A stretch of DNA of 64,000 bases, taken from contig CAZYAN010000010.1 of the NCBI GenBank assembly GCA_964645585.1, forward strand, positions 3,677 to 67,676, read 5' to 3'. Made by a program: the position numbers and the translations under genes. The notes below the pieces were generated by a model, which did not search any database, was not told where the DNA came from, and saw only the letters and a program-made list of their open reading frames with translations. The stretch comes from an uncultured Opitutales bacterium. GTDB lineage: Bacteria > Verrucomicrobiota > Verrucomicrobiia > Opitutales > T3Sed10-336. This document shows positions 1,974-30,783 of the stretch, one piece after another. Positions within the stretch are counted from its first letter, which is position 1. Every line of letters starts with the position of its first letter.

Positions 1974-4900
1974 ATGAATCTGTTTACTGCCACCCATTCA
2001 CTTCGCCGGAGTCTCCCGGCGTATCCTGTGGTCGCGTTGCTCGTGCTTGCCATGATCGGCGCAGCGTCCAATCTCCGCGGCCAAGCCTGGGAGCTCTTTG
2101 AATCGTCGTCGGTGCCCGCTGTGTGGAGCGTCTCTGGAACCGGCGCAAGCATTCGGACCGATAACAGCCGTTCCTGGCAGGGAAATCGCTCCTTGGAATG
2201 GAGCTGGAGTCAGCCGTCCACCACCCTTACATGGACGATCGCGCCAGCGACCTCCGGCTCCGGCCACCGCGTCTTGTCACAATGGGTGCGACTCGAAACG
2301 CCGCTTCCCGATGCCCGTCTCAGAGTCGAGCTGCGCTCCACCAACAACAGCCTGCGGTATTTCGAGGTAAACCTCGATTTCACCGGCTGGCGCACGATGT
2401 TCGTTCCCTACAGCAGCATGGACGGCAGCGGGACAAACAACATCAATCGCGTCCGCTGGACACTGGTCGGATCACCGCCGCAATCCGGGAAGATCCATCT
2501 CGATCAGGTCATCGCGGGCCAACTGATGGATGTGCGCTTTCAATATGCCGACGCCCAGGTGCCTTTCGTCTGGGCGGAGCGCGTGAACAGCATGTGGGAA
2601 AACAAACCTCACTGGCATCGCGCCCGCCCCGCTCGCGTCGTTCCGACGGCCGCCGAACTCGCCGCCCTCGCCAAAATCCGTGTCGACTGGGACTCCCGTC
2701 TCGCCGGCACCGGAACCGTCACGACCAGCCAGGTCAATTCCTGGGAAACCCAGCTGAACGCCTACAACCTCCGGCGCGAAGGCGGCGTCGTCCGCGGCAA
2801 TCCCATCTACTACCGTCAATACCCGGAGTACGCGTACCCCTCCACCCTCGCCAATCAGATCGTCGGCGCCCAGGCGCCGAACGCCTTTCAGGATTTCACC
2901 ACGCTTATGTACAACATGGCCCGCGCATGGCACCGCACGACCAACACGACGCTGCGGTCGCGTCTGGCCGACATGATCGTGCTGATGTCGGAACACCTCC
3001 TCGACCAAGGCTGGGCCGGCGGGAGCAACCAGGGTTCCATTTTTCTCTACGGGTACCAAAGTCGCGAATACATGCGAGCGATGTATCTCGCCCGCCACAT
3101 CTACGCCCAGACCGGGATGCTCGACGAGATGCTGGAAGCGGCGCTTTGGTACGGCCAGGCCGGCTTCCTGCTCGACGGGCCGCGCGCGCCCAACATGGAT
3201 TTCTTCAATACCTTGCTCCAAGGTCAGATGCTCTCTCTCCTCATGGACCCGGACCCGGGCATGCAGACCGCATGGATGCGTCTCTTCATTGAAAACCTCA
3301 GCGACCAGGTCGCCAACCATACCCCGGGCGACCTCAACGGTTTCAAGCCGGACGGAACAACCTACCACCACAACGGCCATTATCCGGCCTACGGGATCGG
3401 CGCGATCTCCACGCTCGGCGGTGTCTTCGACGTGTTGCGGGGAACACCATTTGAACTGACGGATCCCGCGCGTATGTCGTTTCGCCAGGTCCTCCTTGCC
3501 GCCCGGCACTACGCCCACCCGTACGACTGGCCGATCGGACTCAGCGGCCGCCATCCTTTCAGCGGCACCATCGGCAACGCTCGATCCCCGATTCTTGCCC
3601 TCTCTCTCTACCCGGACCCTGTCCTTGGAAACGCTCCGGACCGCGAACTCGCCGGCGCCTATGTCCGGCTCTGGGGACAACCGGACGGCACGGCCGGCAC
3701 CGCCTACCAAAGCGCCGGCATCCAGGCCGAAACGGGGCACGGCTTCCACCCATTTCCGTTTGCCAACCACGCGGTCTACCGGTTCGACGACTGGATGGTC
3801 AGCCTTAAAGGCTACAGCCGCTACGTCTGGGCGTCCGAAATTTACGCGGCCGACAATCGCTACGGACGGTACCAGAGCAACGGCACAGCGGAAATTCTCT
3901 TTGGCTCAGGACGAACAGCGAGCGGCTTCCGTGAAAACGGCTGGGACTGGAACCGCCTCCCAGGCACAACCACCGTCCACCTTCCCATTGAGCTGCTCGA
4001 CAGCCCGCACAGCGGCACACTGATGCGCCGCTCCAATGAAACCTTCGCCGGCGGTGTTTCCGGCGAATCGGGCGGCGCTTTTGGATTTGTTCTCAACGAA
4101 GCGTACTACGGTCACCTCCTGACCGCCCGCAAATCCGCGTTTGCGGCCGACGGCATGCTGATCATGCTCGGCTCAGGCATCTCCTCGAATCATTCCTCGG
4201 CCCCGGTGGAAACCACGCTCTATCAGGTCGCGCTCACCGGCGGACGTCCGCCAATTTACCTGTCGACCTCGCCTGACACGCCCGTCTCGAACTTTCCTTG
4301 GACCTATTCGACTACGCCTTCCACCGCGTTCTGGACAGTCGACCCGGTCGGGAACGCTTTTTGGATGCCGCCCGGCCAGCATGTGCGGTTTTCTCGTGTA
4401 AATCAGGAATCGCGTCATAATAAAACGAGTGCGGTAACCAACGGCGACTTTGCCAGCGCCTGGATCGATCACGGCACGAAACCGGACAACGCCCGCTATG
4501 AATACGTTATTCTCCCCCAGCGCTCGGTCGCTCAGGTCGCCCAGTTCACGGCTGAAATGGCATCGGCCTCTCCCGCGTATGAAGTCCTCCGCCACGACAA
4601 CGGACTCCACGCGGTCCGCGTCGCGAACCCGAACCGCTATGGCTTTGCCATCTACGAGCCGAATGAATGGAGCGACCTGCCGCACCTGACTGAAGCCGAA
4701 ACGCCTTTCCTCCTCTGGATCGAAGAGGCAGGAAACCATCTGGTCGTTTTCGCGGCCAATCCCGACCTGAATTCGACACCGGAGGAGAATCTCGTCTCCC
4801 CAACCTCGTTCACCCTTCGCGGACTCTGGGAAGTCGCGGACACAAACAGCACGGGGATCCTCGCCTGGCACGACGCCGGTGACACCCGCTTTGTCATTCC

Positions 4901-6248
4901 AGCCCGGAACGGGGCAACGTACCGCCTCCACCTGATGCCGGCAGCCTCGCCGATTCCGGGTAGTCTGGTCGACATTCGTGACGAAATCGCCCCGCCCGCC
5001 AACTTCAGTGCCGCTGCCGCCTCACCGTTTATTCACTGGAACGTATCCAGTGGAGCGATACTCGGTTACGTGGTCGAGCGGCGGCGCCCCGGCGCCACCG
5101 AATTCGAGTTCCTCTCGATTGTCTCCAACGACGCGACACACTTCTTCGATCCGGAGCTGGCGGCCGGTGACTTCGCGCATTACCGCGTGCGCTGCTGGAC
5201 GGAAGCCGGTCCGGGCGCCGCGACGACGTCCATCCTCGTTCACAACGCGAGAAACAACGGCACGTTCTTCGATTTCCGTACGATCAGTGCGGTCAATGAT
5301 CTACAGGCACTCGGCTGGACCGCCTCCGGTCTCCAGTCGGCAAATGACTGGTATCTGGAACCGCGCGGCATGTTTCTCATCGACAATTCCACGAACAACG
5401 CGGCTTCCTTAGTGGTCCCGTTTGCTCACCGCGCCACCGGCCGCATCGAAGCGCGCATGGGGGTTGCCCGCACTTCGGGCTTCTACGCGAACCTCGAATT
5501 GATGGCAGGGTCCGAGTCGCTCGGATTGATCCAGCTCTCCAACCGCGAGAACGGATTTCTTCGCGGCCCAAGCGATGTCTCCTTCAGCGATGTCCGCTGG
5601 GATATCGAACAAGGAACGCTTCGCGACCTCGCGATCGAATGGCGCGAACTCCCCGGAACGGGTCAAATCGCAATCGTTCTCCGCTACACCGGCACAACCG
5701 ACGCGGCCAGCGCGCTCCACTATTGGCAAATTCCCAACACCGTCGCCAACCGTCCCGACCGACTTCGGCTCTCAGTCGGGTTTGGATCCGCCGTCAACCG
5801 CGGCATGGTTCTCCAAACGCTCGAGATCGCCGAAGACCAGCCGGCGGCGCCCGCGGAACTGTACGCGGCATGGACGAAGGCCTTTCTCGGTGAATATAAC
5901 GCGGATCCCGCGGCGGATGCCGATGGCGATGGTGTTCCCAACCTTTGGGAGTTCGCCTGGTCCCGCGGCGCCGCGGCTGAACACGTTCCCGCCCGATCCG
6001 ACCTGATCCCGCAAATGGAAACCGGCGAAGATGGACCGCGTTTTGTCTGGGAAATTCCAATACTGACAGACAGTGATCTCCGCCTTGAAACAACTGACCG
6101 GTTCGATAGCGAATGGACCGTCGTCTCCCACATTGAAACCCCGATAATCGGTCGTCCCGGCTGGACGCGCATCACCTCCCCGCCCGTCTCGGCAGCGGAT
6201 TCGTCCCGGTTTTTCCGCCTTGTCCTGGTCAGCGAGCTTAACCCGTAG
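1974..6248 (+). CDS. Giant secreted polysaccharide lyase, chondroitinase-ABC-like (PL8-type), with extra C-terminal modules
   Basis: 1424-aa ORF with a signal peptide (VVALLVLAMIGAASNLRGQA). The catalytic-block-like segments FKPDGTTYHHNGHYPAYGI and GWDWNRLPGTTT match my memory of chondroitinase ABC / PL8 lyases. C-terminal FN3-like and jelly-roll-like segments follow, then DADGDGVPNLWEFAW and a beta-sandwich ending RFFRLVL. Confidence 0.65.
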   Translation: MNLFTATHSLRRSLPAYPVVALLVLAMIGAASNLRGQAWELFESSSVPAVWSVSGTGASIRTDNSRSWQGNRSLEWSWSQPSTTLTWTIAPATSGSGHRVLSQWVRLETPLPDARLRVELRSTNNSLRYFEVNLDFTGWRTMFVPYSSMDGSGTNNINRVRWTLVGSPPQSGKIHLDQVIAGQLMDVRFQYADAQVPFVWAERVNSMWENKPHWHRARPARVVPTAAELAALAKIRVDWDSRLAGTGTVTTSQVNSWETQLNAYNLRREGGVVRGNPIYYRQYPEYAYPSTLANQIVGAQAPNAFQDFTTLMYNMARAWHRTTNTTLRSRLADMIVLMSEHLLDQGWAGGSNQGSIFLYGYQSREYMRAMYLARHIYAQTGMLDEMLEAALWYGQAGFLLDGPRAPNMDFFNTLLQGQMLSLLMDPDPGMQTAWMRLFIENLSDQVANHTPGDLNGFKPDGTTYHHNGHYPAYGIGAISTLGGVFDVLRGTPFELTDPARMSFRQVLLAARHYAHPYDWPIGLSGRHPFSGTIGNARSPILALSLYPDPVLGNAPDRELAGAYVRLWGQPDGTAGTAYQSAGIQAETGHGFHPFPFANHAVYRFDDWMVSLKGYSRYVWASEIYAADNRYGRYQSNGTAEILFGSGRTASGFRENGWDWNRLPGTTTVHLPIELLDSPHSGTLMRRSNETFAGGVSGESGGAFGFVLNEAYYGHLLTARKSAFAADGMLIMLGSGISSNHSSAPVETTLYQVALTGGRPPIYLSTSPDTPVSNFPWTYSTTPSTAFWTVDPVGNAFWMPPGQHVRFSRVNQESRHNKTSAVTNGDFASAWIDHGTKPDNARYEYVILPQRSVAQVAQFTAEMASASPAYEVLRHDNGLHAVRVANPNRYGFAIYEPNEWSDLPHLTEAETPFLLWIEEAGNHLVVFAANPDLNSTPEENLVSPTSFTLRGLWEVADTNSTGILAWHDAGDTRFVIPARNGATYRLHLMPAASPIPGSLVDIRDEIAPPANFSAAAASPFIHWNVSSGAILGYVVERRRPGATEFEFLSIVSNDATHFFDPELAAGDFAHYRVRCWTEAGPGAATTSILVHNARNNGTFFDFRTISAVNDLQALGWTASGLQSANDWYLEPRGMFLIDNSTNNAASLVVPFAHRATGRIEARMGVARTSGFYANLELMAGSESLGLIQLSNRENGFLRGPSDVSFSDVRWDIEQGTLRDLAIEWRELPGTGQIAIVLRYTGTTDAASALHYWQIPNTVANRPDRLRLSVGFGSAVNRGMVLQTLEIAEDQPAAPAELYAAWTKAFLGEYNADPAADADGDGVPNLWEFAWSRGAAAEHVPARSDLIPQMETGEDGPRFVWEIPILTDSDLRLETTDRFDSEWTVVSHIETPIIGRPGWTRITSPPVSAADSSRFFRLVLVSELNP

Positions 6249-6819
6249 AACGTATCGCGGTCGATCCACCTCCCGCCACGCACTTCTTCAGCCCCTTACC
6301 CCTGACTTCGGCACCGGCCCAGAGCCGACGGGCTGTCTGGAAACATTCCGCCGCAGCCGAAGGACACAACATTTTCGGCTGGCTCCGCCCCCATAGGTCC
6401 ACCGGTTGCAGTTACCCCGCCGCCTCCCTGCCAATGAGCTTCTTTGCGCCAGCTGAAAGACGGTGAACAGAACTCCCGGCGATCGCGGAGCCCGTGCCGA
6501 GATTGCGACCAGGGGGCTGCTGTCGAGAAGCACCGGGGAGATTGAAAAAAGGAGTACTCTCAAAAAGGAAAATACGTACGCCACCCGCCCAGGCTCAAGG
6601 GTCAATATTCACGGTAAAAAAAGAGTTGAATAAAACAAACATTCGAGCCGCTTGCCTGTCTTTGCGGGCTGATGGCGCGGACCATTCTAGATTCTATCGA
6701 TGAAAATGCCAATGCGATATCCCACTTCGGAAATACCGCAAAATCGACATTCTTTCCCTTGCCTTCCAGCGTCGCCGTGCTTGTATTGATATATAATTAC
6801 AGCCTTCTTTTCTTCAGAT

Positions 6820-7557
6820 ATGCCCAATAAAATGCCTCGATGCGATCTGGCGGAAACTCGCAGCTCGCGCGCATTCACCCTGATCGAACTCCTCACCGTT
6901 ATCGCCATTATCGGCATTCTCGCGGCGATCCTTATTCCGGTCGTCGGCGCGGTTCGCGACAGCGCGCGCGCATCGAAGTGCATTTCGAACCTGCGCCAGA
7001 TGAGGAACGGGATCGCTCTTTACGCGAACGACCATAATGGCGTCGCGCCGCCGCCAGCATTCTGGGGAAGCCGACCGGAGAACTTCCCGAGCAACGATCT
7101 CCGAACAACTTTCCATTATAGGATTTGGGAATACGTCGGCTATGAGAATCGCACATTCAGGCGGCCGGACAATACACAGCTCACCGAAAGTCGTACAGAG
7201 AATATATTTCATTGTCCGTCTACTGTTCAGAAACTCACTGTTGTACCCGGCGGAACGGCATCTATAGACGGTTACGCGTATGCGATGAACGAGCAGCCCA
7301 ACGTTATTTATAACAGGGACGTCACCGTCGGCCTGAAGAAAGACCGGCTGACCGCCCCTTCGCGAACCGTGGCCGTTCTGGAGCACTCATCGTGGAAGAC
7401 GACTCCGGCGAAATATTTCGAGAGCGGTCTTATCCCTCACAACGGCGGTGGAAACTTTCTTTTCTACGACGGCCACGTTCAGGCGATAAAATTCGAATCC
7501 GTCCCCAAAAACAGTTATCAGGATGACGGCCTTTATTTCTGGGCGGGCGGGCGTTAG
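6820..7557 (+). CDS. Prepilin-type N-terminal cleavage/methylation domain protein (pseudopilin, H-X9-DG / DUF1559-like)
   Basis: 245 aa. Short basic leader, then [25 protein letters not shown] (N-methylation motif with conserved Glu at +5). C-terminal [13 protein letters not shown] is an exact H-X9-DG motif. Confidence 0.85.
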
Positions 7558-7598
7558 CCATTCCTCTTTCCTTGTCTCCTAACCTATCCAACTACAAC

Positions 7599-8483
7599 AT
7601 GCTACAACGAATATCCTGCTGTTACCGTTACGCTCAAAAGTCATTGAAAATCGCTGGAATCGCGCTTTTCTCTTTCACTCTTCCCGAAGTTGCAAACGCC
7701 CAAACCGATCTTGTCGTGGACGATTTTCAATCCGGTTATCCCGGCCAAGCCGTCCACGGAGCCGACACCTATTACTCGTCGCCTGTCCCGCGCTGGTATT
7801 ACAGTTCCTCGCACGCGCTCGATGCTTCAGGCGCCTACATCGCGGCGGACGCTTCATCCGCGAATCAATACATGTACTTCAATGGGCAGGTCAATACCTG
7901 GTCTATCACGTGGGTTGACTGCGACAGCGCCAGTTACCTGACTCTGAACCCTGCAAAGCGATACAGGATTGAGTTCGACTTGCTCAATGTTACCGGCGCG
8001 GGAGAAACCAGTGCCCTGCTTTTGCATTATCTATTGAATGACCGATGGACGAATATGGGAGCGGTGGTGCAAACTGATCCCGCGGGCTACCGTTTGCAGC
8101 TTCATATATCGGGTGACAATACTGTCGGATATAAAATCATCCATAAAGGCGGCGGCCAATTTATCGACGTCCCCGGAGCCGCGGGCGAAGCCGAAGTCGC
8201 CCCGGCCTGCTCGGCTCGAGCGAAACCGAACCGGGCCGTCCCGTGCGAGTCGCTCTCGAGTTCTTTCAGAACGAGCAGAGCCTGTACATCGACGGCGTGG
8301 AGCAGTTCACCGTCGATATCGATCCCCTGCCGCAGAATATGCTTTTTGGCAACGGATTCTGGGTGCAGATCTGGTCCAGCGCCGGACAAGCTCGCGGGAT
8401 GGACAACATTTTACTCCAGGAACTGGAGGCTCCGGAGCCTGAACCCTGGACTCCTGTTGAACCGGGTGAGGTTTACTGGGTAA
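7599..8483 (+). CDS. Signal-peptide-bearing lectin-like N-terminal fragment, probably the 5' part of the 8243-11152 gene (frameshifted)
   Basis: ATG at 7599 (the ORF track uses TTG at 7572). Signal peptide KIAGIALFSFTLPEVANA|Q. The sequence looks protein-like up to ..IIHKGGGQFIDVPGAAGEA (about nt 8190). After that the frame-0 translation becomes S/R/A-rich low complexity, while another frame becomes protein-like. Confidence 0.5.
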   Translation: MLQRISCCYRYAQKSLKIAGIALFSFTLPEVANAQTDLVVDDFQSGYPGQAVHGADTYYSSPVPRWYYSSSHALDASGAYIAADASSANQYMYFNGQVNTWSITWVDCDSASYLTLNPAKRYRIEFDLLNVTGAGETSALLLHYLLNDRWTNMGAVVQTDPAGYRLQLHISGDNTVGYKIIHKGGGQFIDVPGAAGEAEVAPACSARAKPNRAVPCESLSSSFRTSRACTSTAWSSSPSISIPCRRICFLATDSGCRSGPAPDKLAGWTTFYSRNWRLRSLNPGLLLNRVRFTG

Positions 8484-11152
8484 ACACCACCACAGTTCGC
8501 ACCTCCGAATCGAATGGAGGGGACCCGCGAACGGTGGCCGAAGGCTACGGGCGAATCATCGGCGTTGCGGTCGACTCGGTAAACGAGACGGTCTACTGGA
8601 CAGATGCCGGCGACATTTTTCGCTCTGATCTTAGCGGTGCAAATGCGGCAAGGATCTATGACGGCGACGGTTCGACCCAGGCGATTGCGGTAGATCCGGT
8701 TCGCGGAAAAATCTATTGGACCGAATGGGCGACGGGGCTTTACAGCGCCGACCTCGACGGGCAGGGAGTCACCCCTTTGCTCGATTTGGACGACTATGGC
8801 CAGGCAACTGGCTCGGGCGCGGTCACAATCGATCCAGTCACCGGGCGAGTGTACTGGGCAGAAGTCATCGCCGGCACCGTGGTCCGCCTGGACGCGAACG
8901 GCGGCGGCGCCGCAACCGTAGCAACTCTTGGTGCCAACACCTACGGGCTCGCCGTCGATGGAGAGAGCGGCCGCCTCTATTATACTGTCTTTGGGGCGGA
9001 GGGATCGTTGAATTACTACGACCTCGTGTCCGGCGAAACTACCGAAGTTCTGTCCGGTCTCAAAGAACCGCTTGGCGTCGCGTTGACAGCAGCAAACAAC
9101 GGCATTTTCTGGGCCGAACGCACGGGTGGAAAAATCAGCCGGGCATTTCTCAATGAAAACGGAGAAATTGAAGGGTCCATCAACACGATCCGGATCGGGG
9201 AAATCAGCCCATTCGGTCTCGCCGTCACCTCGGACGCAACCGGCCCGGTTCCCCCGCCAGCAAAGCGTCGTCTCTTTGTGTATGACGGCTTTGAATACAA
9301 CGCACGCGATCTGGTCGGACAAGACGGCGGCCTCGGCTGGGCCGGGCCTTGGGTCGAATCGCAAGAGGTCAACGGACCCTATCCTTTCGCGCTGGCCGCA
9401 TCACCGGGTCTGACTTTCGGCGATCTGCAAGCAGCCGGCGGCAAAGCTGAAATCAGCAACGGTCGACGCGCTTTCCGCACAATCGACACCGCCGGAATCA
9501 ACCCCGAACAACTTGACACCAACGGCAATCTCGGTGTCCCGGGGACCAGCGTCTGGGCCAGCTTCGTCGTGGAAGGCCTGACTGCCTCGCCCACCGACGG
9601 GTTCTGGGGCATCTCCTTCTTCCGCGGCGATGCCGAAACGCTCTTCTTCGGAAAGAGCGCGACGACCGATAAGCTCCGTCTTTCCGGCCAAGGTCAACCG
9701 GCGCAGGAATTCATGGATTCTCCGCTGAGCCCGACCGATAAGCACTTCATCATCCTGCGATTCGACTTTGTCGACAACGGTAATGATGTGGTCACGCTGT
9801 TCGCCGATCTCGATCCAATGGCTCGAACACCGTCCGACGACGATGCCCGCGGGACCTTCTCAGCGGCTGACTTCAGTTTCAACCGCATCCGCCTGGCCAA
9901 CAACGGCGGCCCTGGCGGGACGTTCGACGAGATTCGCATCGGCGCGACTTGGGCCGATGTGACACCGGTGCCATTCCGCGGTCTTGTGAACGGAGACTTG
10001 GAAGATGAGCCCTTCACTCGCGGCTGGAGCGTCAATGTCGGCGCTAAGGAGCATCCCGGCATCGTTCCGGGATCCGGCAAAGCGGCGTTCGTTCCGAGCG
10101 GGGGCGCGACCGAAAATCCGATCCGCCTGATCCAATTCTTCCCGCAATGGATTGAATTGACAGGCGATCCGCTGCCGGCCAATCCGTCCCCTGTCGACCC
10201 GGTCACTGGCGGGCGCACGGCCGATCACTTCATTCCTACCGGACCGCAATGGCAGCTGGGCTTTCACGCCGCTGTCGGTGCTCCCGAGAATGGTGGAGAC
10301 CGCAGCTTGAACCTTCTGCTCGGCCATGCGCCGTCCGCTGCCTACAACGTGGCGAATCTGCCGGTCATCAACTTCCGGATTACGGGCGACGGCTCTGGAC
10401 AAGTCTACAACAACTCAAACCCGGCGTTCAGCACCGGCTGGCATGTTATCCTGCCCGCCGGAACCTTCGAGGCATCCGAGCATGCCGATGACGCCTTCAT
10501 CGACCCGAGCGTTTATTACCTGCAGTTCGATGGCGACTATTCCACGGAACAGCCTTCCTACACGGTCTCGGTTCGTCGAGCCGGCGAAGACGACTTCTTC
10601 GCCGTCAGCGATGCCGCCAGCTATTGGCAATACGAAGTACCGCCGGCCGGAAGCGGGATCACCATGGTCCACTTCCACGGGTACGTCCAGGCGCCGTACG
10701 TGATCGACGATATCCATCTGGTGACGATCGGAGAACCCACTGGCTACGCGGCTTGGGCAGAAAATCACTTCAACCCGTCAGAACTCGCCGATCCATCGAT
10801 TAGCGGACCCGACGCCGATGCGGACGGAGACGGCATTCCGAATCTGATCGAATATGCATTTGGCGGCGATCCGCGTAAGGCGAGCCGGTCGATTTTGCCT
10901 GTCACCGGCCCCATTGAAGTGGAAGGCGAAACCTACCTGACGATCACCTACACGCGTTCCAGCGCGGCGACCGACATCGCCTATCGGGCAGAAGCTTCCG
11001 GCGATCTCATCGCGTGGGGCGCCGGCCCGGTGGAAGTCGGGTCCAGCGATAACGGCGACGGCACAATTTCGGTCACCTATCGCGACGCCGAACCGATCCG
11101 CACCGCCGGCAGACGTTTCCTCCGCGTGCATATTTCGAATGCCGGTCAGTAG
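8243..11152 (+). CDS. Giant secreted protein with a six-bladed YWTD beta-propeller, jelly-roll domains and the shared C-terminal tail module
   Basis: 969-aa ORF (GTG 8243; this frame is open from 8147). It has no signal peptide of its own and starts mid-domain (VRVALEFFQNEQSLYIDGVEQF). Six YWTD-type blades are visible (EVYWVN, TVYWTD, KIYWTE, RVYWAE, RLYYTV, GIFWAE; nt ~8465-9232). The C-terminus reads YAAWAENHF..DADADGDGIPNLIEYAF.. and ends RRFLRVHI. Confidence 0.8.
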   Translation: MRVALEFFQNEQSLYIDGVEQFTVDIDPLPQNMLFGNGFWVQIWSSAGQARGMDNILLQELEAPEPEPWTPVEPGEVYWVNTTTVRTSESNGGDPRTVAEGYGRIIGVAVDSVNETVYWTDAGDIFRSDLSGANAARIYDGDGSTQAIAVDPVRGKIYWTEWATGLYSADLDGQGVTPLLDLDDYGQATGSGAVTIDPVTGRVYWAEVIAGTVVRLDANGGGAATVATLGANTYGLAVDGESGRLYYTVFGAEGSLNYYDLVSGETTEVLSGLKEPLGVALTAANNGIFWAERTGGKISRAFLNENGEIEGSINTIRIGEISPFGLAVTSDATGPVPPPAKRRLFVYDGFEYNARDLVGQDGGLGWAGPWVESQEVNGPYPFALAASPGLTFGDLQAAGGKAEISNGRRAFRTIDTAGINPEQLDTNGNLGVPGTSVWASFVVEGLTASPTDGFWGISFFRGDAETLFFGKSATTDKLRLSGQGQPAQEFMDSPLSPTDKHFIILRFDFVDNGNDVVTLFADLDPMARTPSDDDARGTFSAADFSFNRIRLANNGGPGGTFDEIRIGATWADVTPVPFRGLVNGDLEDEPFTRGWSVNVGAKEHPGIVPGSGKAAFVPSGGATENPIRLIQFFPQWIELTGDPLPANPSPVDPVTGGRTADHFIPTGPQWQLGFHAAVGAPENGGDRSLNLLLGHAPSAAYNVANLPVINFRITGDGSGQVYNNSNPAFSTGWHVILPAGTFEASEHADDAFIDPSVYYLQFDGDYSTEQPSYTVSVRRAGEDDFFAVSDAASYWQYEVPPAGSGITMVHFHGYVQAPYVIDDIHLVTIGEPTGYAAWAENHFNPSELADPSISGPDADADGDGIPNLIEYAFGGDPRKASRSILPVTGPIEVEGETYLTITYTRSSAATDIAYRAEASGDLIAWGAGPVEVGSSDNGDGTISVTYRDAEPIRTAGRRFLRVHISNAGQ

Positions 11153-11197
11153 GCGCTTGCTTGTCTGGCACGTGTAACTGGCAAACGTTTAAACAGA

Positions 11198-11235
11198 GGC
11201 TCCGGGTGCTTTCGAACCCGGAGCCTTTATTTCTT
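11198..11235 (+). terminator. Rho-independent terminator after the 8243-11152 gene
   Basis: Perfect 9-bp stem GGCTCCGGG / CCCGGAGCC with a 10-nt loop, followed by TTTATTTCTT. Confidence 0.7.
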
Positions 11236-18132: not shown

Positions 18133-20523
18133 ATGATGACTTTCCCGAAGCCGATCTTCCTGGCTGGCGCGGTCGCGGCAACCGCCTGTTGTTCGATTCA
18201 CGCGGAATTCCCCGCCCTTCGTCTCGAGCCGATCGCGATCGGACAATTCTCTTCCCCGGTTGCCATAACCCATGCGGGCGATGGATCGGGCCGTCTCTTT
18301 ATCGCGGACCAGCGCGGCCGGATTTATATCCTCCACGACGGTGCCGTCCTCCCGGAACCGTTTCTCGATATCGAGAACAAACTCGTCACGGAACGACCCG
18401 GCTTCGATGAGCGCGGTCTCCTCGGATTAGCCTTCCATCCCGAATACGCCACGAAAAGCGCGCCGGGCGAAGGACATTTTTATATATACTACAGCGCGCC
18501 GTCTCCCGATGCGCCCGGAACCGCATCAGATCCGGTTGATCATCGAAGCGTCATCGCGGAATTCCGGGTCTCGGCTGAGAACCCTAACCAGGCGGATCCG
18601 TCGAGCGAACGTGTTTTGCTCACCTTCAATCAGCCCCAGTTTAATCACAACGGCGGACAACTCGCATTCGGCCCCGACGACGGCCTTCTCTACATTTCCA
18701 CAGGCGACGGAGGCAGTGCCAATGACAACAACGCGGGCCACACAGGCGGTGACTCCTCCCAACCTTCCGGCGTACTGGGAAACGCGCAGGACCTGACCCG
18801 ACTTCTCGGAAAGGTCCTGCGCATCCAGCCGTTGGGCACGAACGGACCCGGCGGCCAGTATGGGATTCCTCCCGGCAATCCATTCGTCAATTCGCCCGGC
18901 GGAGAGCGCGAGGAAATCTTCGCGTACGGTCTCCGCAACCCGTGGCGTTTTTCTTTCGACAAGCCTCCCGGCGAACCGCAGCGCCTGTTTCTCGCCGACG
19001 TCGGGCAGGGCCGCTTCGAAGAAATTAATCTGATCATCCCCGGCGGAAACTACGGCTGGCGCGCATTTGAAGGTTTCTCGGATTTCGATCCGACGGCTCC
19101 GTCCAGCGGACCGTATGAGGAACCGATCGCATCCTATTCCCGAAACGGTCAATCCGGGGACAGCGGGCTGCCAGAGATCGGTATCAGCGTGACAGGCGGG
19201 TACGTCTATCGCGGTACAGCCATTCCCGAACTTCAAGGGAAATATATTTTCGGCGACTGGTCCACCAGCTTCGGGGCACCGAACGGAACCCTTCTTGGAC
19301 TCGAAGAATCAGCACCAGGCGTATTCGATCTATCGATACTTGAAATCGAAGGCGGTAATCCCATTGGGCGGTTTATTCCTTGCTTTGGTGTGGACGAACA
19401 GGGGGAAATCTACGTCGGCACAAAAATGTCTCTGGGTCCGTCGGCCCCTCATCCCGATACCGGCGAACCGGCCGGGCAGCTGTTCAAGATTGTCGCACAA
19501 GCGGAACCGGTCGAAATCACGCTCGTCCCGTCCCGCGACAACTCGATCTATTCCGACTTTCCCAATAACTCGAATGGCGCCGGCGACCTCTTTGCCGGAA
19601 GGATCCAGTCGGGCGACGGCGTTCGCCGCGCCCTGCTCCAGTTCGATCTCGATGAAGTTCCAGCTGGATCGCAAATAATCGACGCGACGCTTTCGCTAAC
19701 CGTCAACATGACAACGACAGGCAGCTTCGACTTCTCCCTCCACCGTCTGCTTCGCGACTGGGGTGAGGCCGGTTCTTTCGGAACAGGAACGGGAGGGCCC
19801 GCACAAACCGGCGATGCAACGTGGTCCAACGCATTTCATCCTGGCGACGCCTGGTCCGCGGCCGGCGGCGATTTCGTCTCCTCGGCGAGCGCAACCACGG
19901 CGGTAGGCGCGCTGGGACAATACCAGTGGACGTCGCCGCAGCTCGCTGATGATGTTCAACAGTGGCTCGACAATCCGGACCAGAATCACGGCTGGATCTT
20001 GCTCGGCAATGAAGCCACCCCCTCAGCCAAACGCATCCACTCGAGCGAAAGCGGCAACAGCGGCGCCCGGCCGGCGCTCACCATTCACTATTTGGCAACC
20101 AGTGCGTTGTCACGCAGGCAAATTTGGGAGCGGGAGCATTTTCAGATCGGACAATACATCGATCCCGAGGACGATGCCGACGGGGACGGGATTCCCGCAC
20201 TCCTGGAATACGCTTGGGATCGGAATCCCGCGATTTCCGATGCCGACCCGAACGATCTGGCGCTCGCGCTCGGTCCGCCGACTGCCACGATCCGTTTCCG
20301 ACGCGACCCGCGCGCGGCCGACCTGAACTATATTCTGGAGGTTTCATCCGACCTCCAAAATTGGAGCGCAATCGTCACCTCCTCAAGCGGCGAACCGCCG
20401 TCCAATCCCGCCTTTCTCAGCGAATCTCCGGACCCGGCCAATCCGGAGCTGCGCATCGTCGAAGCCGCCCTCCCCTTCGACCAGGATCGGCAATTCACCC
20501 GCCTGCGGGTGGAACGCCCATAA
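18133..20523 (+). CDS. Secreted PQQ-dependent sugar dehydrogenase-like beta-propeller (GSDH/sorbosone dehydrogenase family) fused to a DNRLRE-like jelly-roll and the shared C-terminal tail
   Basis: 796 aa with a signal peptide. GSDH motifs RGLLGLAFHP, HNGGQLAFGPDDGLLYISTGDGG and YGLRNPWRFSFD. These are followed by RALLQFDL ... LHRLLRDWGE, then DDADGDGIPALLEYAW, ending QFTRLRVERP. Confidence 0.8.
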   Translation: MMTFPKPIFLAGAVAATACCSIHAEFPALRLEPIAIGQFSSPVAITHAGDGSGRLFIADQRGRIYILHDGAVLPEPFLDIENKLVTERPGFDERGLLGLAFHPEYATKSAPGEGHFYIYYSAPSPDAPGTASDPVDHRSVIAEFRVSAENPNQADPSSERVLLTFNQPQFNHNGGQLAFGPDDGLLYISTGDGGSANDNNAGHTGGDSSQPSGVLGNAQDLTRLLGKVLRIQPLGTNGPGGQYGIPPGNPFVNSPGGEREEIFAYGLRNPWRFSFDKPPGEPQRLFLADVGQGRFEEINLIIPGGNYGWRAFEGFSDFDPTAPSSGPYEEPIASYSRNGQSGDSGLPEIGISVTGGYVYRGTAIPELQGKYIFGDWSTSFGAPNGTLLGLEESAPGVFDLSILEIEGGNPIGRFIPCFGVDEQGEIYVGTKMSLGPSAPHPDTGEPAGQLFKIVAQAEPVEITLVPSRDNSIYSDFPNNSNGAGDLFAGRIQSGDGVRRALLQFDLDEVPAGSQIIDATLSLTVNMTTTGSFDFSLHRLLRDWGEAGSFGTGTGGPAQTGDATWSNAFHPGDAWSAAGGDFVSSASATTAVGALGQYQWTSPQLADDVQQWLDNPDQNHGWILLGNEATPSAKRIHSSESGNSGARPALTIHYLATSALSRRQIWEREHFQIGQYIDPEDDADGDGIPALLEYAWDRNPAISDADPNDLALALGPPTATIRFRRDPRAADLNYILEVSSDLQNWSAIVTSSSGEPPSNPAFLSESPDPANPELRIVEAALPFDQDRQFTRLRVERP

Positions 20524-22009: not shown

Positions 22010-24055
22010 TCAATCCACTATCCCGCCTGTCGGCCCGGGACCCGCGTCCGTCATCGTCACCGGCGCGATCCGCCCGTCCGTCTGATAGCTAAGTCTCTCA
22101 ATCGCCACCGACCGCGAACCGCTATACGGTCCAAGCCCAGGCCGATTATTCCACCGGTGATAAAAGATATACCACTCGTCCGTTCCCGGCAGGCGCACGA
22201 TGGAGTGATGCCCTGGCCCCTTGTGGGTCGCGTCGCTGCCGAGAATCTTTCCCCGATACTGCCACGGTCCAGCCGGTGACGAAGCCGTCGCATAATGCAC
22301 CGAATAGGTATGGTCGTGCCAAGAACCATGACTGTACGATAGATAATAAGTCCCGTTCCTGAAATGCATGTAAGCGCCTTCCGTGAAACTCGGCGGCGTC
22401 GCCACCGAAATCTCCCGCGCAAACGAAACCAAGTCGTCATTCAGCTCGAACAACCGAAGCGTCGACCCTGCACTGCCGCCCGCATACAGCCAAACCTTTC
22501 CAGTCGCCGGGTCCTCGAAGACCGCTGCATCAATCGCCTCAAAACCGGGATCTCCCCCGTCCGCCAGCAGCGGTTGCCCGGAATCGACGAACGGCCCGTA
22601 CGGCGCGTCCGCAACCGCGACGCCAATGTGCGACGGCTTAGGACCAACCGAATAATACAGATAAAACCGCCCATCCTTCTCCAACACGCCCGGCGCCCAC
22701 GCGTGCGATGTGCGTCCTTCCCTCTCCGTTTCGATCCAAGGAACATCCGCGAGCCGCAGCACCGGACCGTGCATGCGCCACCGGACGAGATCCTCCGACG
22801 AAAAAACGATAAACCGCTGCGCCCCGCGGGTCGGATACACCCAGAACCGGCCGCCCCACCAGAGCACGTCCGGATCCGCGCCGTCAAAGATCGGATTGCC
22901 TGCCTCGCCCTGCACCCGCGCCGTATCGACGCGCGCGCGAAGAAACGAGGCTTCCCGATCTTTGAGCGCAATCGTACTGACAAGACGAACCCGTCCAGGT
23001 ACCTCGCCGGGGTGTTCGACCGAAAAAGCAACGGCCGCCCAATCGCGCAGGTTGGTCGAGGCTTCCAAGCCCAGATCCTCCCAATCCGCCGGCGGATTGG
23101 TATCGAGCGCGAGCACGACCGGCGTCCCTTCCGCGTCCACTCGCGGAACCAGCCTTGCCTCCACGCGCAAACTATCAGGACGGGTTGCCGGCGAAGCGAG
23201 AAACTCCTCCGGTTGGAGCACCCGGTCGGAAACGCGAACTTCATCGAGCGCCCCCGCAAAATACTGATTCGTCTCCCACCCGTCCGAGGCGGCACCCAGC
23301 CGCCAAGTGCCGCGTTCTCCAGAGCCGCCAGCTCCGTTGTAAAACGCTCCGTCGAGCGCTGCGGATCCCTCCTTTACAAACCCAGAACTGCCCGGTCCTT
23401 GCAGCCAGAGCACCAGCTCCGTCGCGGATCCAGTCGCCACCGCGCTGTACCATTGACCTTCCTCAAGCGGGGCCTGACTTGTGACCGTCCTCGGCGTCCC
23501 TGAGCCATCAACGACCCCGACTTCCAAACGTCCCGATTCTCCGCTCTTGCGGAACCAAATCCAGACCGGATGCAGCGAAAAAATGTTGCCGGTCTTGGAA
23601 AGGAGCACTTGGTCGCCATTTGACGGATACAAAAGAAACGACACCTCCACAGTCCACTCCTCAAGCGGCTGGTCATCGATCGGCTTCGGATCATTCTCCT
23701 CGGGACGATGCCAAGTGAACAGCGATCGCTCGGGTGTAAAACTCGCCGCCAACCGATTTACCTCGCCCGAACCAGGAAGGTAATCAAACGGCGTGTCGGT
23801 CATGTAAGCCGGCGCATGCACCGGAAAAAACGGCCGCAAATGATTTCCGTGCCCGGAATGGTCGATGACCGAATTGAAGGCCGCGCGGATGTCATCGCCC
23901 GCGAGCCCTTCCTCGAAACGCCAGTAGGCGATCGTCTCGCCGGTCCCAGTCCCCGTTCCAATCAATCCCGCAACCAAAGCGATAATCCACGGTGTTCGAA
24001 ACCCGTTTCTAGTCCCCATTTGCGCTACCGACAGCCGCCTTTGTCTGTTGTCCAT
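22010..24055 (-). CDS. Secreted LamG-domain + glycoside hydrolase family 43 protein
   Basis: GH43 motifs ADPDVLWWGGRFWVYPT, HAWAPGVLEKDGRFYLYYS and TEGAYMHFRNGTYYLSYS. N-terminal LamG-like region (IAYWRFEE ... LDEVRVSDRVL). Start set at ATG 24055 (alternative 24019), because the ORF-track start at 24202 overlaps the upstream gene. Confidence 0.8.
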   Translation of the reverse strand: MDNRQRRLSVAQMGTRNGFRTPWIIALVAGLIGTGTGTGETIAYWRFEEGLAGDDIRAAFNSVIDHSGHGNHLRPFFPVHAPAYMTDTPFDYLPGSGEVNRLAASFTPERSLFTWHRPEENDPKPIDDQPLEEWTVEVSFLLYPSNGDQVLLSKTGNIFSLHPVWIWFRKSGESGRLEVGVVDGSGTPRTVTSQAPLEEGQWYSAVATGSATELVLWLQGPGSSGFVKEGSAALDGAFYNGAGGSGERGTWRLGAASDGWETNQYFAGALDEVRVSDRVLQPEEFLASPATRPDSLRVEARLVPRVDAEGTPVVLALDTNPPADWEDLGLEASTNLRDWAAVAFSVEHPGEVPGRVRLVSTIALKDREASFLRARVDTARVQGEAGNPIFDGADPDVLWWGGRFWVYPTRGAQRFIVFSSEDLVRWRMHGPVLRLADVPWIETEREGRTSHAWAPGVLEKDGRFYLYYSVGPKPSHIGVAVADAPYGPFVDSGQPLLADGGDPGFEAIDAAVFEDPATGKVWLYAGGSAGSTLRLFELNDDLVSFAREISVATPPSFTEGAYMHFRNGTYYLSYSHGSWHDHTYSVHYATASSPAGPWQYRGKILGSDATHKGPGHHSIVRLPGTDEWYIFYHRWNNRPGLGPYSGSRSVAIERLSYQTDGRIAPVTMTDAGPGPTGGIVD

Positions 24056-26093
24056 GCCAGTCCGTTTCACCTCTTCCCGCAATCGAACCGAATGAAAGAT
24101 ACACATCATCCTTCCAGCCATCCCGCCAAACCAGTGTGGCCTTGAGCGAGGTTTCGTCCACCGAACGTTCGACCGAAAGCAGCAGAGGTTCATCCCCTCC
24201 AAACGGTGCGAGTAGAGTCACCATAAACCAAGGCGGCCCGTTCCCGACGCGATACACGAGACGAGGCGCCGGATACTTGGACCCGTATTTCGGCGAATAC
24301 CATCCTTCCTCGACAAGTGGCTCCGCCTCGCCACCGAGCGGAATAACCGCGATCTCCGCCGTTCCGTAATCGGTCGCAAACGCGCCCGGAAACTTTGTCA
24401 GCCGCTGCGGCTCCGTTGGCAGAAATCGCCAGTTTTGCTCGATCACCAGCGACTCCCGCATGACCTCCGGCGCTCGCACAAGGTCAGCGACAATCCAGTA
24501 TTCGTCCCGGACCATCAGCAACTGCCGTTCATGTATGATCGACCCGTCCACGCCGTCTGGGAGCAAGTGACTGTATCCATCGTGCCAGGCATGGAGATAC
24601 TTGAGCTCTCCTTCGATTTGCGAGCGCGCGAGCACCGGTTCAACATTCCGCACCATGTTCCCGCCGTTGATCGAAACCGTGTTCTGGAAACGCGTCTGAA
24701 GAAAAGCGTCGCGCCCGCCAGCGTCGTAGGTGTAGCGTCCCGGCGCAACGATCAGCGGCTGTCCGTCCGCATACAGCTCGACCGCGAGCGCGCGGTCGGC
24801 GCCCCGTCCGCGCGGTCCGTAATCCATCATCGACCAATGCGCATCACGACCGTCGGTCCATGGACTTCGCAGCAGCGCGAATTTTCCTTCCGGAAAAATC
24901 CGGCTCGTCCAGGCCGGCGGCGCGCCTTCCTTTCCCTCCGTCGCCAGATACACATGGTCCGGCCGATCCGCCTGTCGCCCCCAGCGCAGCAGACGGTCCT
25001 CCATAAAATCCCGATCCGTGTGGCCGAACTGCGGAATCGTCAGATTCGGCTGAGTAAACGCCGCCGCGAAATCAAACATGCCGTTCAAGCGCTCCACAAA
25101 CTCCTCCGCAACCGGCGCCCCCGCCCGCTTCATGAGCTGGTAAAACCAATTCTCCTCCCGCAAGGTCACGTTGTGATAGGTGGGGCTTCGGCCGCGATAA
25201 ACACCGTCGGCGTACGTGGATTCAAAGATGTGGTTTCGCATCGTTTCCACCGTCACGCGAGCCCATTCGCCCGCATCTCGAAACTCCGGAAAATACGTCG
25301 CCGCCTGCAAGACACTGACCGCCGCCATGGCACCCTGATTGCTGTCGCCGTATCCAGCTGAACCGCGCGCGTTCAGCCACTCGCAAGTCGCGTGCATGGT
25401 ATCCAAAAAAACCGTCAGAACCTGCTCGTCAAAATGGCGCGATGTAACCGCCACCGGAAAAAGCCACGTCCAGTGCCGCATCCGAATGCCGGCTTCGAGA
25501 CGCCGCGGATAGCCAGGCGCCACCTGCTGATCCCATTCCAGAAACCGTTCGGCGAACTCCGCCATGTAACGTTCGTCACCAAACCGTCGATACGCCTCCA
25601 CCAGCGTCAGAAAATACGTGTGGCGGTTGAGCATAAAATTCCACTCACGGTCGTGGAGCTGATGTTTCCAGTCGACTCTGTCGCCAAACTCGACCGTCTC
25701 TCCAAGAAAGGTCAGCCGACGGGCCAACGCATCGGCCGGAGTCGTCGTATCATGCACCCCGACGGGCATGCAGCGGACACTCGGCACCTTCATCGGATCA
25801 TGGAGGTCGGCATCGATTCCGGGCAGGTCGCGAATCGCCGTCGACGGGTCGAAATGATAGTCCATCTCACGCGTCCGATAATACTGGAGCAGTTGCGTGA
25901 TTGCCGCCCTTTCGTCCCCCGCCGCAACCGCCTGACGGACCTTTTCCAAACCGGGCCGGTCGAGGTCGATTCGCGCAAGCACGGCAGCGGCCCGCTCCGG
26001 GTTAGCCGGCGCTCCTTCCGCCACCGCAGCTGCCCCAGCGATCAACGCGATCGACCAAGAAGCCCAGCCGATGAGTTTTGCCATTTCCCTCAT
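24009..26093 (-). CDS. Secreted heparinase II/III-like (alginate-lyase-fold N-domain + Hepar_II_III C-domain) protein
   Basis: Signal peptide MREMAKLIGWASWSIALIAGAAAVAEG from ATG 26093. Helix-rich N-terminal half. The C-terminal half carries HWSMMDYGPRG..LAVELYADGQPLIVAPGRYTY...FQNTVSINGGN, which resembles the Hepar_II_III signature. Confidence 0.6.
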   Translation of the reverse strand: MREMAKLIGWASWSIALIAGAAAVAEGAPANPERAAAVLARIDLDRPGLEKVRQAVAAGDERAAITQLLQYYRTREMDYHFDPSTAIRDLPGIDADLHDPMKVPSVRCMPVGVHDTTTPADALARRLTFLGETVEFGDRVDWKHQLHDREWNFMLNRHTYFLTLVEAYRRFGDERYMAEFAERFLEWDQQVAPGYPRRLEAGIRMRHWTWLFPVAVTSRHFDEQVLTVFLDTMHATCEWLNARGSAGYGDSNQGAMAAVSVLQAATYFPEFRDAGEWARVTVETMRNHIFESTYADGVYRGRSPTYHNVTLREENWFYQLMKRAGAPVAEEFVERLNGMFDFAAAFTQPNLTIPQFGHTDRDFMEDRLLRWGRQADRPDHVYLATEGKEGAPPAWTSRIFPEGKFALLRSPWTDGRDAHWSMMDYGPRGRGADRALAVELYADGQPLIVAPGRYTYDAGGRDAFLQTRFQNTVSINGGNMVRNVEPVLARSQIEGELKYLHAWHDGYSHLLPDGVDGSIIHERQLLMVRDEYWIVADLVRAPEVMRESLVIEQNWRFLPTEPQRLTKFPGAFATDYGTAEIAVIPLGGEAEPLVEEGWYSPKYGSKYPAPRLVYRVGNGPPWFMVTLLAPFGGDEPLLLSVERSVDETSLKATLVWRDGWKDDVYLSFGSIAGRGETDWHGQQTKAAVGSANGD

Positions 26094-26259
26094 GGGTCTA
26101 TCCTTTCCTGCACTTCCTCGGGCAATCGGACAACGTGCCGCCGCGAGGTATACGCAAACGGCACGTTCCATGCCTTGGCGGAAGGCGGCGCGCACGCGGC
26201 CGACTTCACGAAATCCGGCCTGGCTGCGCGCACCCACGCGGATGCAGTTCTCTTTCCCA

Positions 26260-30033: not shown

Positions 30034-30093
30034 GGTTTTTGGAGGGTTCTGATTGGAGAGAAACAACCCGCGGACGCGAAACGAAGAAGGGCG

Positions 30094-30783
30094 CTATCTT
30101 CGCCCGCCCTGCGAGGGCATCGGAAAGGGGTTTTTGAAATACCAGGTGTTGCTGCCGACGCTGTAACCGCCCGGATCAAACTCCGCGGCCGGCACCCACT
30201 CGACACTGCCGTCGGAGCGGAGGTGGTTAGCGCCGGCAACGGACCCGGAGCCGTCGCCATGACTGGCGTTCAGCCCGCGCGAGGGATGATCGCTGACGAG
30301 GTCGACCATCAACAGATCGTATTCGAGCGGATCATTCAACGCGCTGAACGGCAGAGAACTCGTGGTCTGCCCCGGCCAGTACGCATAGCCGAATACGATG
30401 GAACCGCCTTCGGAAGTGCGGTTTGCCTCCGTCATGTGCGTCACCATCCAGTCGTTGTTGGCCGGACAGAAAAACATGGCCCAATCGACGTCGTAGCCGA
30501 GCAGATCGTCGCGCTGGATGGCAGAGAGCCAATGAGGGTATGGCGGATTGCTGCCCATGCTGTCCATGTAGCGGCCGCCGTTGTCGTCCCGATAAAGATT
30601 GTGCGCATAGCCCCACTGACGCAGGTGTGTCGCGCACGATGCTCGTTTTGCCTGCTCGCGCACGCGACTGACAACGGGAATGAGGATTGCGGCGAGGATG
30701 CCGATGATGGCGATGACGGTAAGCAGTTCAATCAGGGTGAACGCGCGGCGGCAGACGTGCAGGGTAGCAGATTTCTCATTCAT
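30094..30783 (-). CDS. Prepilin-type N-terminal cleavage/methylation domain protein (pseudopilin, DUF1559-like)
   Basis: 229 aa. [38 protein letters not shown]; the first 25 mature residues are identical to the paralog at 6820. The C-terminal GANHLRSDGSVEW is a degenerate version of the H-X9-DG region. Confidence 0.85.
   Translation of the reverse strand: MNEKSATLHVCRRAFTLIELLTVIAIIGILAAILIPVVSRVREQAKRASCATHLRQWGYAHNLYRDDNGGRYMDSMGSNPPYPHWLSAIQRDDLLGYDVDWAMFFCPANNDWMVTHMTEANRTSEGGSIVFGYAYWPGQTTSSLPFSALNDPLEYDLLMVDLVSDHPSRGLNASHGDGSGSVAGANHLRSDGSVEWVPAAEFDPGGYSVGSNTWYFKNPFPMPSQGGRR

Follow-up and report, generated by a model that had tools for sequence, protein, structure and literature searches.

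The 64,000-nucleotide stretch of DNA analyzed here (hereafter, the window) probably belongs to an Opitutales (Verrucomicrobiota) genome, and the relatives considered below derive from Opitutales metagenome-assembled genomes (MAGs). Our subject is the segment 6820-11152, which consists of two genes on the same strand separated by a 41-nt spacer: a gene for a pseudopilin of the H-X9-DG/DUF1559 type, followed by a large gene for a secreted multidomain protein. An earlier note, made from the sequence alone, placed a signal-peptide gene 41 nt after the pilin gene, and the large gene begins exactly there, at ATG 7599. No terminator-like hairpin was found between the two genes, and one stands at the end of the unit. 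Comparison with related sequences indicates that the pair is conserved as a module, in which the constant core of the large protein is its N-terminal domain (N-domain) plus its C-terminal tail, not the propeller that lies between them. The features of the unit, all on the + strand, are as follows; residue numbers of the large protein refer to the product obtained when a frameshift in its gene is bridged.

6249-6819, + strand: intergenic region of 570 nt, presumably the promoter or regulatory stretch of the two-gene unit
6820-7557, + strand: H-X9-DG/DUF1559 prepilin-like (PulG-like) pseudopilin of 245 residues (Pfam N_methyl and SBP_bac_10; NCBIfam TIGR02532 and TIGR04294)
6874-6945, + strand: mature N-terminal pilin helix, 24 residues, with predicted class III signal cleavage just before F; identical in the paralog encoded at 30670-30747 on the - strand
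7438-7473, + strand: literal H-X9-DG motif in the translation, residues 207-218, starting at H207
7599-8204, + strand: 5' part of the large gene, encoding the signal peptide (7599-7703) and the first ~167 residues of the N-domain (tblastn with residues 1-193 of the intact ortholog P0002)
7704-8446, + strand: N-domain, a concanavalin-A-like (ConA-like) beta jelly roll by its model, residues 36-283, interrupted by the frameshift (AlphaFold2, Foldseek)
8199-8206, + strand: frameshift, GCCCCGGC, a 1-nt deletion relative to GCC CCG GGC (three-frame translation and alignment with P0002)
8204-11152, + strand: 3' part of the large gene in the -1 frame, 982 codons plus stop, 68% identical to P0002 over 986 columns
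8465-9232, + strand: six-bladed YWTD (LDL-receptor class B) beta-propeller (Pfam PF00058, phmmer against PDB, AlphaFold2, Foldseek)
9263-9967, + strand: middle orphan all-beta domain, residues 556-790, starting FVYDGFEY...GGLGW (AlphaFold2, predicted local distance difference test [pLDDT] ~70-88 in part)
9968-10732, + strand: second orphan domain, residues 791-1045, with NGDLEDEPF ... YYLQFDGDYS ... VIDDIHL; poorly modelled
10733-11149, + strand: C-terminal tail, an EF-hand-like loop and then a small beta-sandwich (alignment A7 of 13 tails)
10817-10852, + strand: loop of the tail, DADGDGIPNLIE, a 12-residue calcium loop of the form DxDxDGxxxxxE, followed by a helix
11111-11128, + strand: end of the tail, RRFLRV (literal motif)
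11195-11228, + strand: terminator-like hairpin, a 13-bp stem with 8 G-C pairs and then a T-rich run, 43 nt past the stop codon

The intergenic region 6249-6819 holds no open reading frame (ORF) of the two-gene unit, and no sigma-70-like site was found on its + strand. The first gene had been called an H-X9-DG pseudopilin, and that call stands: in addition to carrying the literal motif, its product passes four curated cut-offs, those of Pfam N_methyl (PF07963; 28.7 bits, cut-off 21.2), DUF1559/SBP_bac_10 (PF07596; 28.5 bits, cut-off 23.3, with only profile positions 2-121 of 268 covered), TIGR02532 (27.8 bits, cut-off 16.3), and TIGR04294 (H-X9-DG; 27.8 bits, cut-off 19). It is not an equivalog of GspG, since it scores 33.2 bits against the TIGR01710 cut-off of 88.85 and aligns only over residues 17-71; its sequence matches in PDB are restricted to the N-terminal pilin helix. 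The predicted prepilin peptidase site, ...SSRA/FTLIELL, has the Glu at +5, and the C-terminus of the subgroup to which this pilin belongs ends in ...DGHV...VP...FW.GG.

The large protein is predicted to be exported by the Sec pathway and has no recognizable catalytic domain. Its leader (MLQRIS...PEVANA/Q) is of Sec type with a cut at ANA/Q, and the N-terminal MLxRIS is kept in P0002 and in the partner proteins of loci L009 and L010. The N-domain that follows was modelled from an alignment containing eight homologs (pLDDT 84; predicted template-modelling [TM] score 0.86), and by this model it adopts a ConA-like jelly-roll fold; the family to which it belongs is very rare. Foldseek returned 221 matches at E<=0.001, the best at E ~5e-6 to 1e-4 with TM scores of ~0.35-0.54; among the 50 matches listed are the GALC lectin domain, GH16, PL7, BoNT Hcn, galectin-10, and CBM66. 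The description of this domain as lectin-like is thus right at the level of the fold. By sequence the domain stands apart: Pfam gave nothing but noise at E<=10, the NCBIfam scan was empty, a search of its alignment against PDB profiles gave no significant match, and HHalign probabilities against the middle and last domains and against the LamG_3 domains of the window were all <3%. Only 10 cluster representatives match it among 1.84 billion proteins.

The segment 8465-9232 is a true six-bladed YWTD propeller. The blades carry one motif each (VYWVN, VYWTD, IYWTE, VYWAE, LYYTV, and IFWAE), and the profile Ldl_recept_b (PF00058) scores 25.9 bits with the whole ORF and 27.4 bits with the domain alone, against a cut-off of 21. 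The AlphaFold2 model (pLDDT>90) has 24 strands arranged as six four-stranded blades. The top 50 Foldseek matches in PDB are all YWTD propellers, with a root-mean-square deviation (rmsd) of 2.5-3 Å over ~270 columns; nidogen (1npe) gives a TM score of 0.81 at an rmsd of ~2.5 Å. A phmmer search against PDB sequences found 38 matches at E<=1, nearly all of them YWTD propellers (LRP4, LRP2, LRP6, LDLR, nidogen) at E 1e-42 to 1e-12, the two weakest being sevenless. Profile and structure prediction, the checks proposed for this call, therefore agree with it to the base, and the fold is neither NHL nor SGL; the gluconolactonase profile SGL reached 20.1 bits, below its cut-off of 26.3. The accompanying statement that such propellers are uncommon in bacteria was too strong, since PF00058 occurs in 13 of 20 metagenomic matches; all 38 PDB matches, however, are metazoan. 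No EGF or Cys-rich module follows the propeller; a Pro-rich linker leads instead to an orphan beta domain.

The two regions after the propeller had been labelled jelly rolls, and that label is not confirmed. Both are all-beta in the AlphaFold2 model, with moderate confidence for the first and poor confidence for the second; neither has a Pfam match, NCBIfam scans were also empty, an alignment of the middle domain gave no significant match against PDB profiles, and HHalign of the middle and last domains stayed at <3%. The post-propeller region (9260-11149) has only 5 homologs at E<=1e-5, and the middle domain is missing from P0004/L010 and from relatives of the L008 type.

These domain assignments bear on whether the large protein might itself be an enzyme, with a divergent GH16- or PL7-type N-domain or a lactonase- or lyase-type propeller, acting on the polysaccharide of the PL8 lyase encoded upstream. 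GH16 laminarinases and PL7 alginate lyases are indeed among the Foldseek matches of the N-domain at E ~1e-5, the N-domain alignment has conserved polar residues (D92, R114, N117, Y129, Q211, N212, D234, and N235), and the propeller has its sub-threshold SGL match. However, identity to any enzyme is 9-14% at TM scores of ~0.35-0.5, the scores of lectin domains (the GALC lectin domain, galectin, BoNT Hcn, CBM66) are just as good, and neither the ExDxxE motif of GH16 nor the QIH motif of PL7 is evident when the alignment is inspected. The sequence and fold matches of the propeller are uniformly to non-catalytic YWTD receptor propellers. We consider a catalytic role unlikely.

In the window, the large gene is broken. 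The ORF map downstream of the pilin gene consists of two overlapping ORFs in different frames, 7572-8483 and 8243-11152. One added G or C at the frameshift site restores GCC CCG GGC CTG, translated as APGL, which agrees with the PGL(L/I) kept in all eleven aligned N-domains. The bridged protein has 1184 residues, close to the ~1180 given in the earlier note, and is 68% identical to the intact ortholog P0002, which has 1171 residues and reads CCC GGA CTC, unshifted, at this position. The break and the bridged length were thus correctly anticipated, but the break was treated as one to be bridged, whereas it recurs in three assemblies and the gene is probably inactive.

We write the alleles at this site as GCCCCGGGC (intact) and GCCCCGGCC (deletion-bearing); a mixture of the two would be written GCCCCGGGCC. 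The site is identical in three assemblies from different sequencing runs, namely the window, L003, which differs from the window by 3 single-nucleotide polymorphisms (SNPs) over 7.4 kb, and L016, which differs by 1 SNP over 5.6 kb. Because assemblies from different runs agree, the deletion is a real allele of the population. Gene callers on contigs bearing the frameshift report only the 969-residue downstream ORF from GTG 8243 (P0001/P0157), and a 294-residue upstream fragment (P0141) is recorded from a further Logan contig. Since the leader-bearing fragment ends inside the N-domain, as a truncated jelly roll, and the 969-residue remainder has no signal peptide, the large gene is most likely inactive here, and we regard it as probably a pseudogene in this lineage.

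That a full-length protein is still made, either because the assemblies share an error in a G+C-rich run or by -1 slippage on C-CCG-G, seems to us very improbable. By inspection, a -1 slip after CCG (Pro) onto CCC, followed by GGC CTG, would give the conserved APGLL, and the L015 ortholog has a 1-nt deletion in a short C run elsewhere, which could mean error-prone sequence or recurrent slippage. Against this stand the identical sequence in three assemblies that differ by SNPs, the unshifted reading of the intact ortholog, and the lack of a slippery heptamer (X XXY YYZ) where the shift occurs, the zero frame there reading C CCG GCC; programmed -1 frameshifting was judged unlikely for want of that heptamer. 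Moreover, known cases of transcriptional slippage or phase variation need longer runs than C4/G2. The deletion in L015 (3985-4000 of a contig from the Joint Genome Institute; CACGCCAGGAAG versus CAC GCC CAG GAA G) sits at the junction of signal peptide and mature protein, and reflects either a sequencing error or another break that arose independently within the family.

Including the window, we counted eight loci in which the large protein begins with the N-domain, and in seven of them (the window, L001, L008, L009, L010, L015, and L018) a pilin gene lies directly upstream. Conservation of the gene pair in related genomes had been set as the key test of the pairing, and the adjacency persists despite changed flanks: a PL8 lyase and a FAD oxidoreductase here; GntR-/LacI-type regulators, a ceramidase, and a rhamnosidase elsewhere. 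The pilin orthologs of the pairs are 40-68% identical, and spacers measure 36-63 nt where the start of the partner is clear. For instance, the pilin of L001 is 65% identical and stands 63 nt before a partner of 1171 residues, that of L010 is 64% identical and stands 50 nt before a partner of at least 686 residues without the middle domain, and that of L009 (68% identical) precedes its partner by ~45 nt after start extension. In L008 a pilin 57% identical is followed after 36 nt by two tandem paralogs of 660 residues, each with N-domain, propeller, and tail. The pilin of L015, 43% identical, is also directly upstream, with a larger gap and the start of the partner disrupted by its frameshift, and the pilin of L018 precedes a partner of 630 residues that has two N-domains and a tail but no propeller. 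Partner architectures therefore range from N-domain, propeller, and tail (660 residues) or two N-domains and tail (630 residues) up to 1171-1184 residues. Every partner carries a signal peptide, and every close pilin ortholog with downstream sequence precedes a homolog of the large protein. Regulators of the sugar-binding Peripla_BP_3 type adjoin the pair in L001, L008, L015, and L018. A scan of a genome collection gave four loci only (MAGs of Opitutales, Chthoniobacterales, and Sedimentisphaerales), none with usable upstream sequence plus a pilin; a metagenome scan contributed one locus, L015.

Several related proteins were observed around these loci. A subfamily represented by P0003 (47% identical; L002 684-4169 and L005 1390-5114) is permuted, with the propeller first, then a jelly-roll-like region, and then the middle domain, last domain, and tail; in L002, the gene upstream of the propeller-first protein ends in a PEP-CTERM signal. 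P0144, a protein of 287 residues (L008 7648-8511, the same as L019 4001-4864), is a lone N-domain with a PEP-CTERM anchor, encoded in the locus with the pilin and the tandem 660-residue genes. Secreted proteins of ~670-705 residues recur beside the pair (L001 13765-17811, L018 1208-3238, L008 8710-10827), together with GntR-/LacI-type Peripla_BP_3 regulators; they have sub-threshold DUF6923/PQQ_2 matches and are probably propellers, and no homolog of them was found in the window.

We read the conserved pair as a bicistronic, sugar-regulated module made up of a secreted glycan-binding protein and a PulG-like pseudopilin that aids its export or tethering, and put the probability of this reading at roughly one half. 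In such a module, the partner protein of intact relatives would be exported and would bind or capture polysaccharide on the cell surface or outside it; the candidate binding surfaces are the ConA-like domain and the propeller's top face. Expression of the pair would be induced by sugar. The pseudopilin, after cleavage by prepilin peptidase, would take its place in a type II secretion or type IV pilus-like apparatus as the dedicated export or tethering subunit of its partner. The literature lends indirect support. Verruconatronum alginivorum, an isolate of the Opitutales, has a pulG-like pseudopilin within an alginate-induced gene cluster and 67 homologs of it in its genome; a pseudopilin is among the genes over-expressed on alginate, and for the lyases the authors suggest export by type II secretion (PMC13274419). 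In Planctomycetes, gold-labelled dextran binds pili-like fibres (PMC5394234).

The main rival of the export or tethering module is that the neighbours share regulation only: the DUF1559 pseudopilin would do a generic job unrelated to the large protein, as a pseudopilus subunit or as an inner-membrane-anchored periplasmic protein, and the pair would persist only through inheritance as one operon. Pseudopilins of this kind form a huge paralog family spread over the polysaccharide loci of these bacteria, with more than 4000 homologs at E<=1e-10 among the candidates scored, in addition to the 67 in a single Opitutales genome (PMC13274419). Pilins 45-48% identical to that of the window adjoin other genes, coding for a sulfatase, a LamG protein, and a chondroitinase-B-like protein; L017, although N-domain-first, has no adjacent pilin; and no significant covariation links the identities of pilin and partner (r=0.46, p=0.12, n=5). 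What speaks against shared regulation alone is that the genes have stayed adjacent although both flanks were replaced completely and the partner was extensively remodelled (the propeller lost, two domains gained), that the spacers are short, and that, with ~67 pilins per few thousand genes, a pilin would lie directly upstream by chance in ~1-2% of cases, by a rough estimate. On balance we hold co-regulation alone to be possible but doubtful.

The similar pilins with other neighbours, the lone L017, and the absence of significant co-divergence also weigh against a dedicated export or tethering role, as do the following points. The propeller-first relatives L002 and L005 have no adjacent pilin, and the count of seven in eight largely reflects shared ancestry, not independent events. 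At -1 of the predicted cleavage site the window pilin has Ala, not Gly, with Gly present in the orthologs of L001, L015, and L018; Ala at this position is tolerated by some prepilin peptidases. Among the 37 window ORFs scanned, none has type II secretion (gspD/E/F) or prepilin peptidase domains. Glycan binding is suggested by the class of the modelled fold, a ConA-like class to which GH16 and PL7 enzymes also belong. With the large gene broken in the window, any function applies to the relatives.

A possible further link between pilin and neighbours comes from the tail. This module occupies the C-terminal ~130-140 residues with the pattern DADGDG[IV]xNLLEYALG ... RRFLRLRV; both the DADGDG and RFLRV motifs reported in the earlier note were located, and the module is common to other proteins. 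It has no family match in Pfam, NCBIfam, or PDB, the best PDB profile match being an EF-hand loop at E 0.22. A local hidden Markov model (HMM) built from alignment A7 matches three places in the window: the C-terminus of the PL8 lyase (5862-6233), the large protein (10733-11149), and 20119-20517, which belongs to a GSDH-like protein (18133-20523). The module also occurs in L002 9890-12115, L013 3-1817 and 3836-6457, and L015 2-1900; in L002 and L013, where the pilins are unrelated, the HMM finds it in genes adjoining them. The pilin at 6820 has the tail on each of its two same-strand neighbours, although only 3 of ~48 window genes carry it (post-hoc chance ~0.003). The HMM has no match in the neighbours of the second window pilin or of the L011 pilin. 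The N-domain paralog P0144 ends in its PEP-CTERM anchor in place of the tail. Taken from sequence, this distribution suggests a sorting or anchoring module connected with pilins. One tail matched NF042425 (the pilus-like Amuc_1099 family of Akkermansia) at E 0.007; we took this lone pilus hint as probably chance.

A bolder reading, for which we hold out little expectation, is that DUF1559/H-X9-DG pseudopilins are cargo-specific subunits of a secretion or display fibre for tail-bearing neighbour proteins. The clients here may be the ConA-like/YWTD protein and the adjacent PL8 lyase, exported or held on the cell surface. The tails on both neighbours of the pilin, the tail-bearing neighbours in L002 and L013, and the dextran-binding fibres (PMC5394234) are consistent with this model and do not prove it.

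The genes around the unit were claimed to point to glycan processing, and domain scans bear this out. Directly upstream, on the same strand as the pilin gene, lies the following:

1974-6248, + strand: PL8 chondroitinase-ABC-type lyase (Lyase_N, Lyase_catalyt, and Lyase_8)

These three Pfam domains have E values of 1.8e-17, 1.8e-70, and 5.3e-33, respectively, and all pass their cut-offs; the gene downstream of the large gene encodes a PF12831 FAD_oxidored protein (E 8e-116). Altogether, the window encodes the PL8 lyase, heparinase II/III, GH88, GH43 with LamG, and DHDPS-, SDR-, and mandelate-racemase-type enzymes, as well as a GntR regulator and sodium:solute symporters, and is a uronate- or glycosaminoglycan-type utilization region for the degradation of acidic polysaccharide. 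Two stretches, 22010-26237 and 30862-35880, hold the GH43 with LamG, heparinase II/III, a DHDPS-type aldolase, a GntR/FCD regulator, the SDR, GH88, and a mandelate-racemase-type dehydratase. Two long ORFs, 56618-59542 (974 residues) and 38280-39725 (481 residues), have no Pfam match at E<=1e-4; the latter is overlapped by opposite-strand ORFs and might not be a true gene. ORF 48206-50386 (726 residues) contains two LacI helix-turn-helix stretches and one Peripla_BP_3 domain, and may be either an ORF called too long or a pair of LacI-type regulator genes, adjacent or fused.

A second pilin gene with a large neighbour lies further along the window, the neighbour starting 27 nt after the pilin gene:

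30094-30783, - strand: pilin-like protein of 229 residues (N_methyl only)
26260-30066, - strand: large secreted protein of 1268 residues (Big_5/fn3-like stretches and Laminin_G_3)

On this account the unit at 6820-11152 had been called copy 1 of 2, which is not borne out. We rejected the idea of homologous cassettes within the window: the large proteins have no significant similarity (best blastp E 0.3), and the second pilin has no match to DUF1559 or H-X9-DG in Pfam or NCBIfam, so the pairs are analogous, not duplicated. A tail on the neighbour of the second pilin was likewise dismissed, since the HMM was negative and only a terminal RQFFRL is held in common. By blastp, the resemblance of the two pilins is confined to their first 58 aligned residues. 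Their N-termini are identical over 26 residues, of which 24 are mature residues; the identity asserted earlier is therefore real, and the figure of 25 mature residues is not. Of the 26 codons, 12 differ synonymously (compared with 30670-30747, - strand). The same 24-residue helix, unchanged, occurs in the pilins of L002, L015, and L018; unrelated pilins of other genomes have it too. An identical protein in the face of 12 synonymous changes upholds the proposed selection on the pilin helix, but this is family-wide and nothing specific to the pair: the comparison argues for purifying selection as a property of the whole family.

How do these elements compare with known systems? The window pilin shares its helix, DUF1559, the H-X9-DG motif, and a massive paralog family with the prepilin-like proteins of the Planctomycetota, Verrucomicrobiota, and Lentisphaerota (TIGR04294, PF07596); that family has no established function, and the subgroup described here is set apart from it by a conserved partner gene. 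With the major pseudopilin GspG/PulG it shares the N-terminal 55 residues (TIGR01710, PDB 5wda), the length class, and the prepilin signal, whereas its globular domain is unrelated in sequence and its gene lies outside any gsp operon. The large protein resembles the surface glycan-binding proteins of SusE/F type in Bacteroidota, which are non-catalytic, multidomain, and beta-rich, and are encoded beside lyases or hydrolases and sugar-responsive regulators. Unlike these, it has no lipoprotein signal, its folds differ, and its neighbour is a pseudopilin; no SusC/SusD pair or TonB-dependent receptor was found among the 37 window ORFs. Its propeller has the six four-stranded blades, the motif in each blade, and significant sequence similarity in common with those of LDLR, LRP2/4/6, and nidogen, but it comes from a bacterium, lacks EGF modules and LDL-A repeats on either side, and shares its polypeptide with domains that include the modelled jelly roll. 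The tail is, by analogy only, like the C-terminal domain of the type IX secretion system, PEP-CTERM, and dockerin in standing at the extreme C-terminus, being common to unrelated secreted proteins, and in one case being replaced by PEP-CTERM; comparison with these families by sequence and profile gave no match. The alginate cluster of V. alginivorum, from the same order, similarly has a pseudopilin paralog among secreted polysaccharide lyases, but no dedicated partner gene is described there, and we compare the two by idea, not by homology of the pilins (PMC13274419). Each of the parts is of a known class, and the occurrence of pseudopilins within polysaccharide loci of Opitutales was reported in 2026 (PMC13274419). 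What is new is the conserved and specific pairing, the rare ConA-like family, the unannotated tail, and a well-supported bacterial YWTD propeller.

The significance of the locus is tempered by the known class of each part and by the broken partner gene in this genome. Nevertheless, the Verrucomicrobiota play a major part in breaking down complex and sulfated polysaccharides, yet lack the SusC/D machinery by which Bacteroidota capture glycans, and they carry dozens of pseudopilin paralogs. A pseudopilin that keeps the same ConA-like/YWTD partner in diverged genomes offers a testable pair for the export or display of glycan-binding proteins by pilins. The locus also provides leads in a bacterial YWTD propeller whose solved relatives are all metazoan, a rare jelly-roll family, and a tail common to several secreted enzymes. 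If pseudopilins do serve tail-bearing cargo, then polysaccharide capture and degradation in Verrucomicrobiota and their relatives would be pilus-borne, doing the job that proteins of SusD/E/F type do in Bacteroidota.

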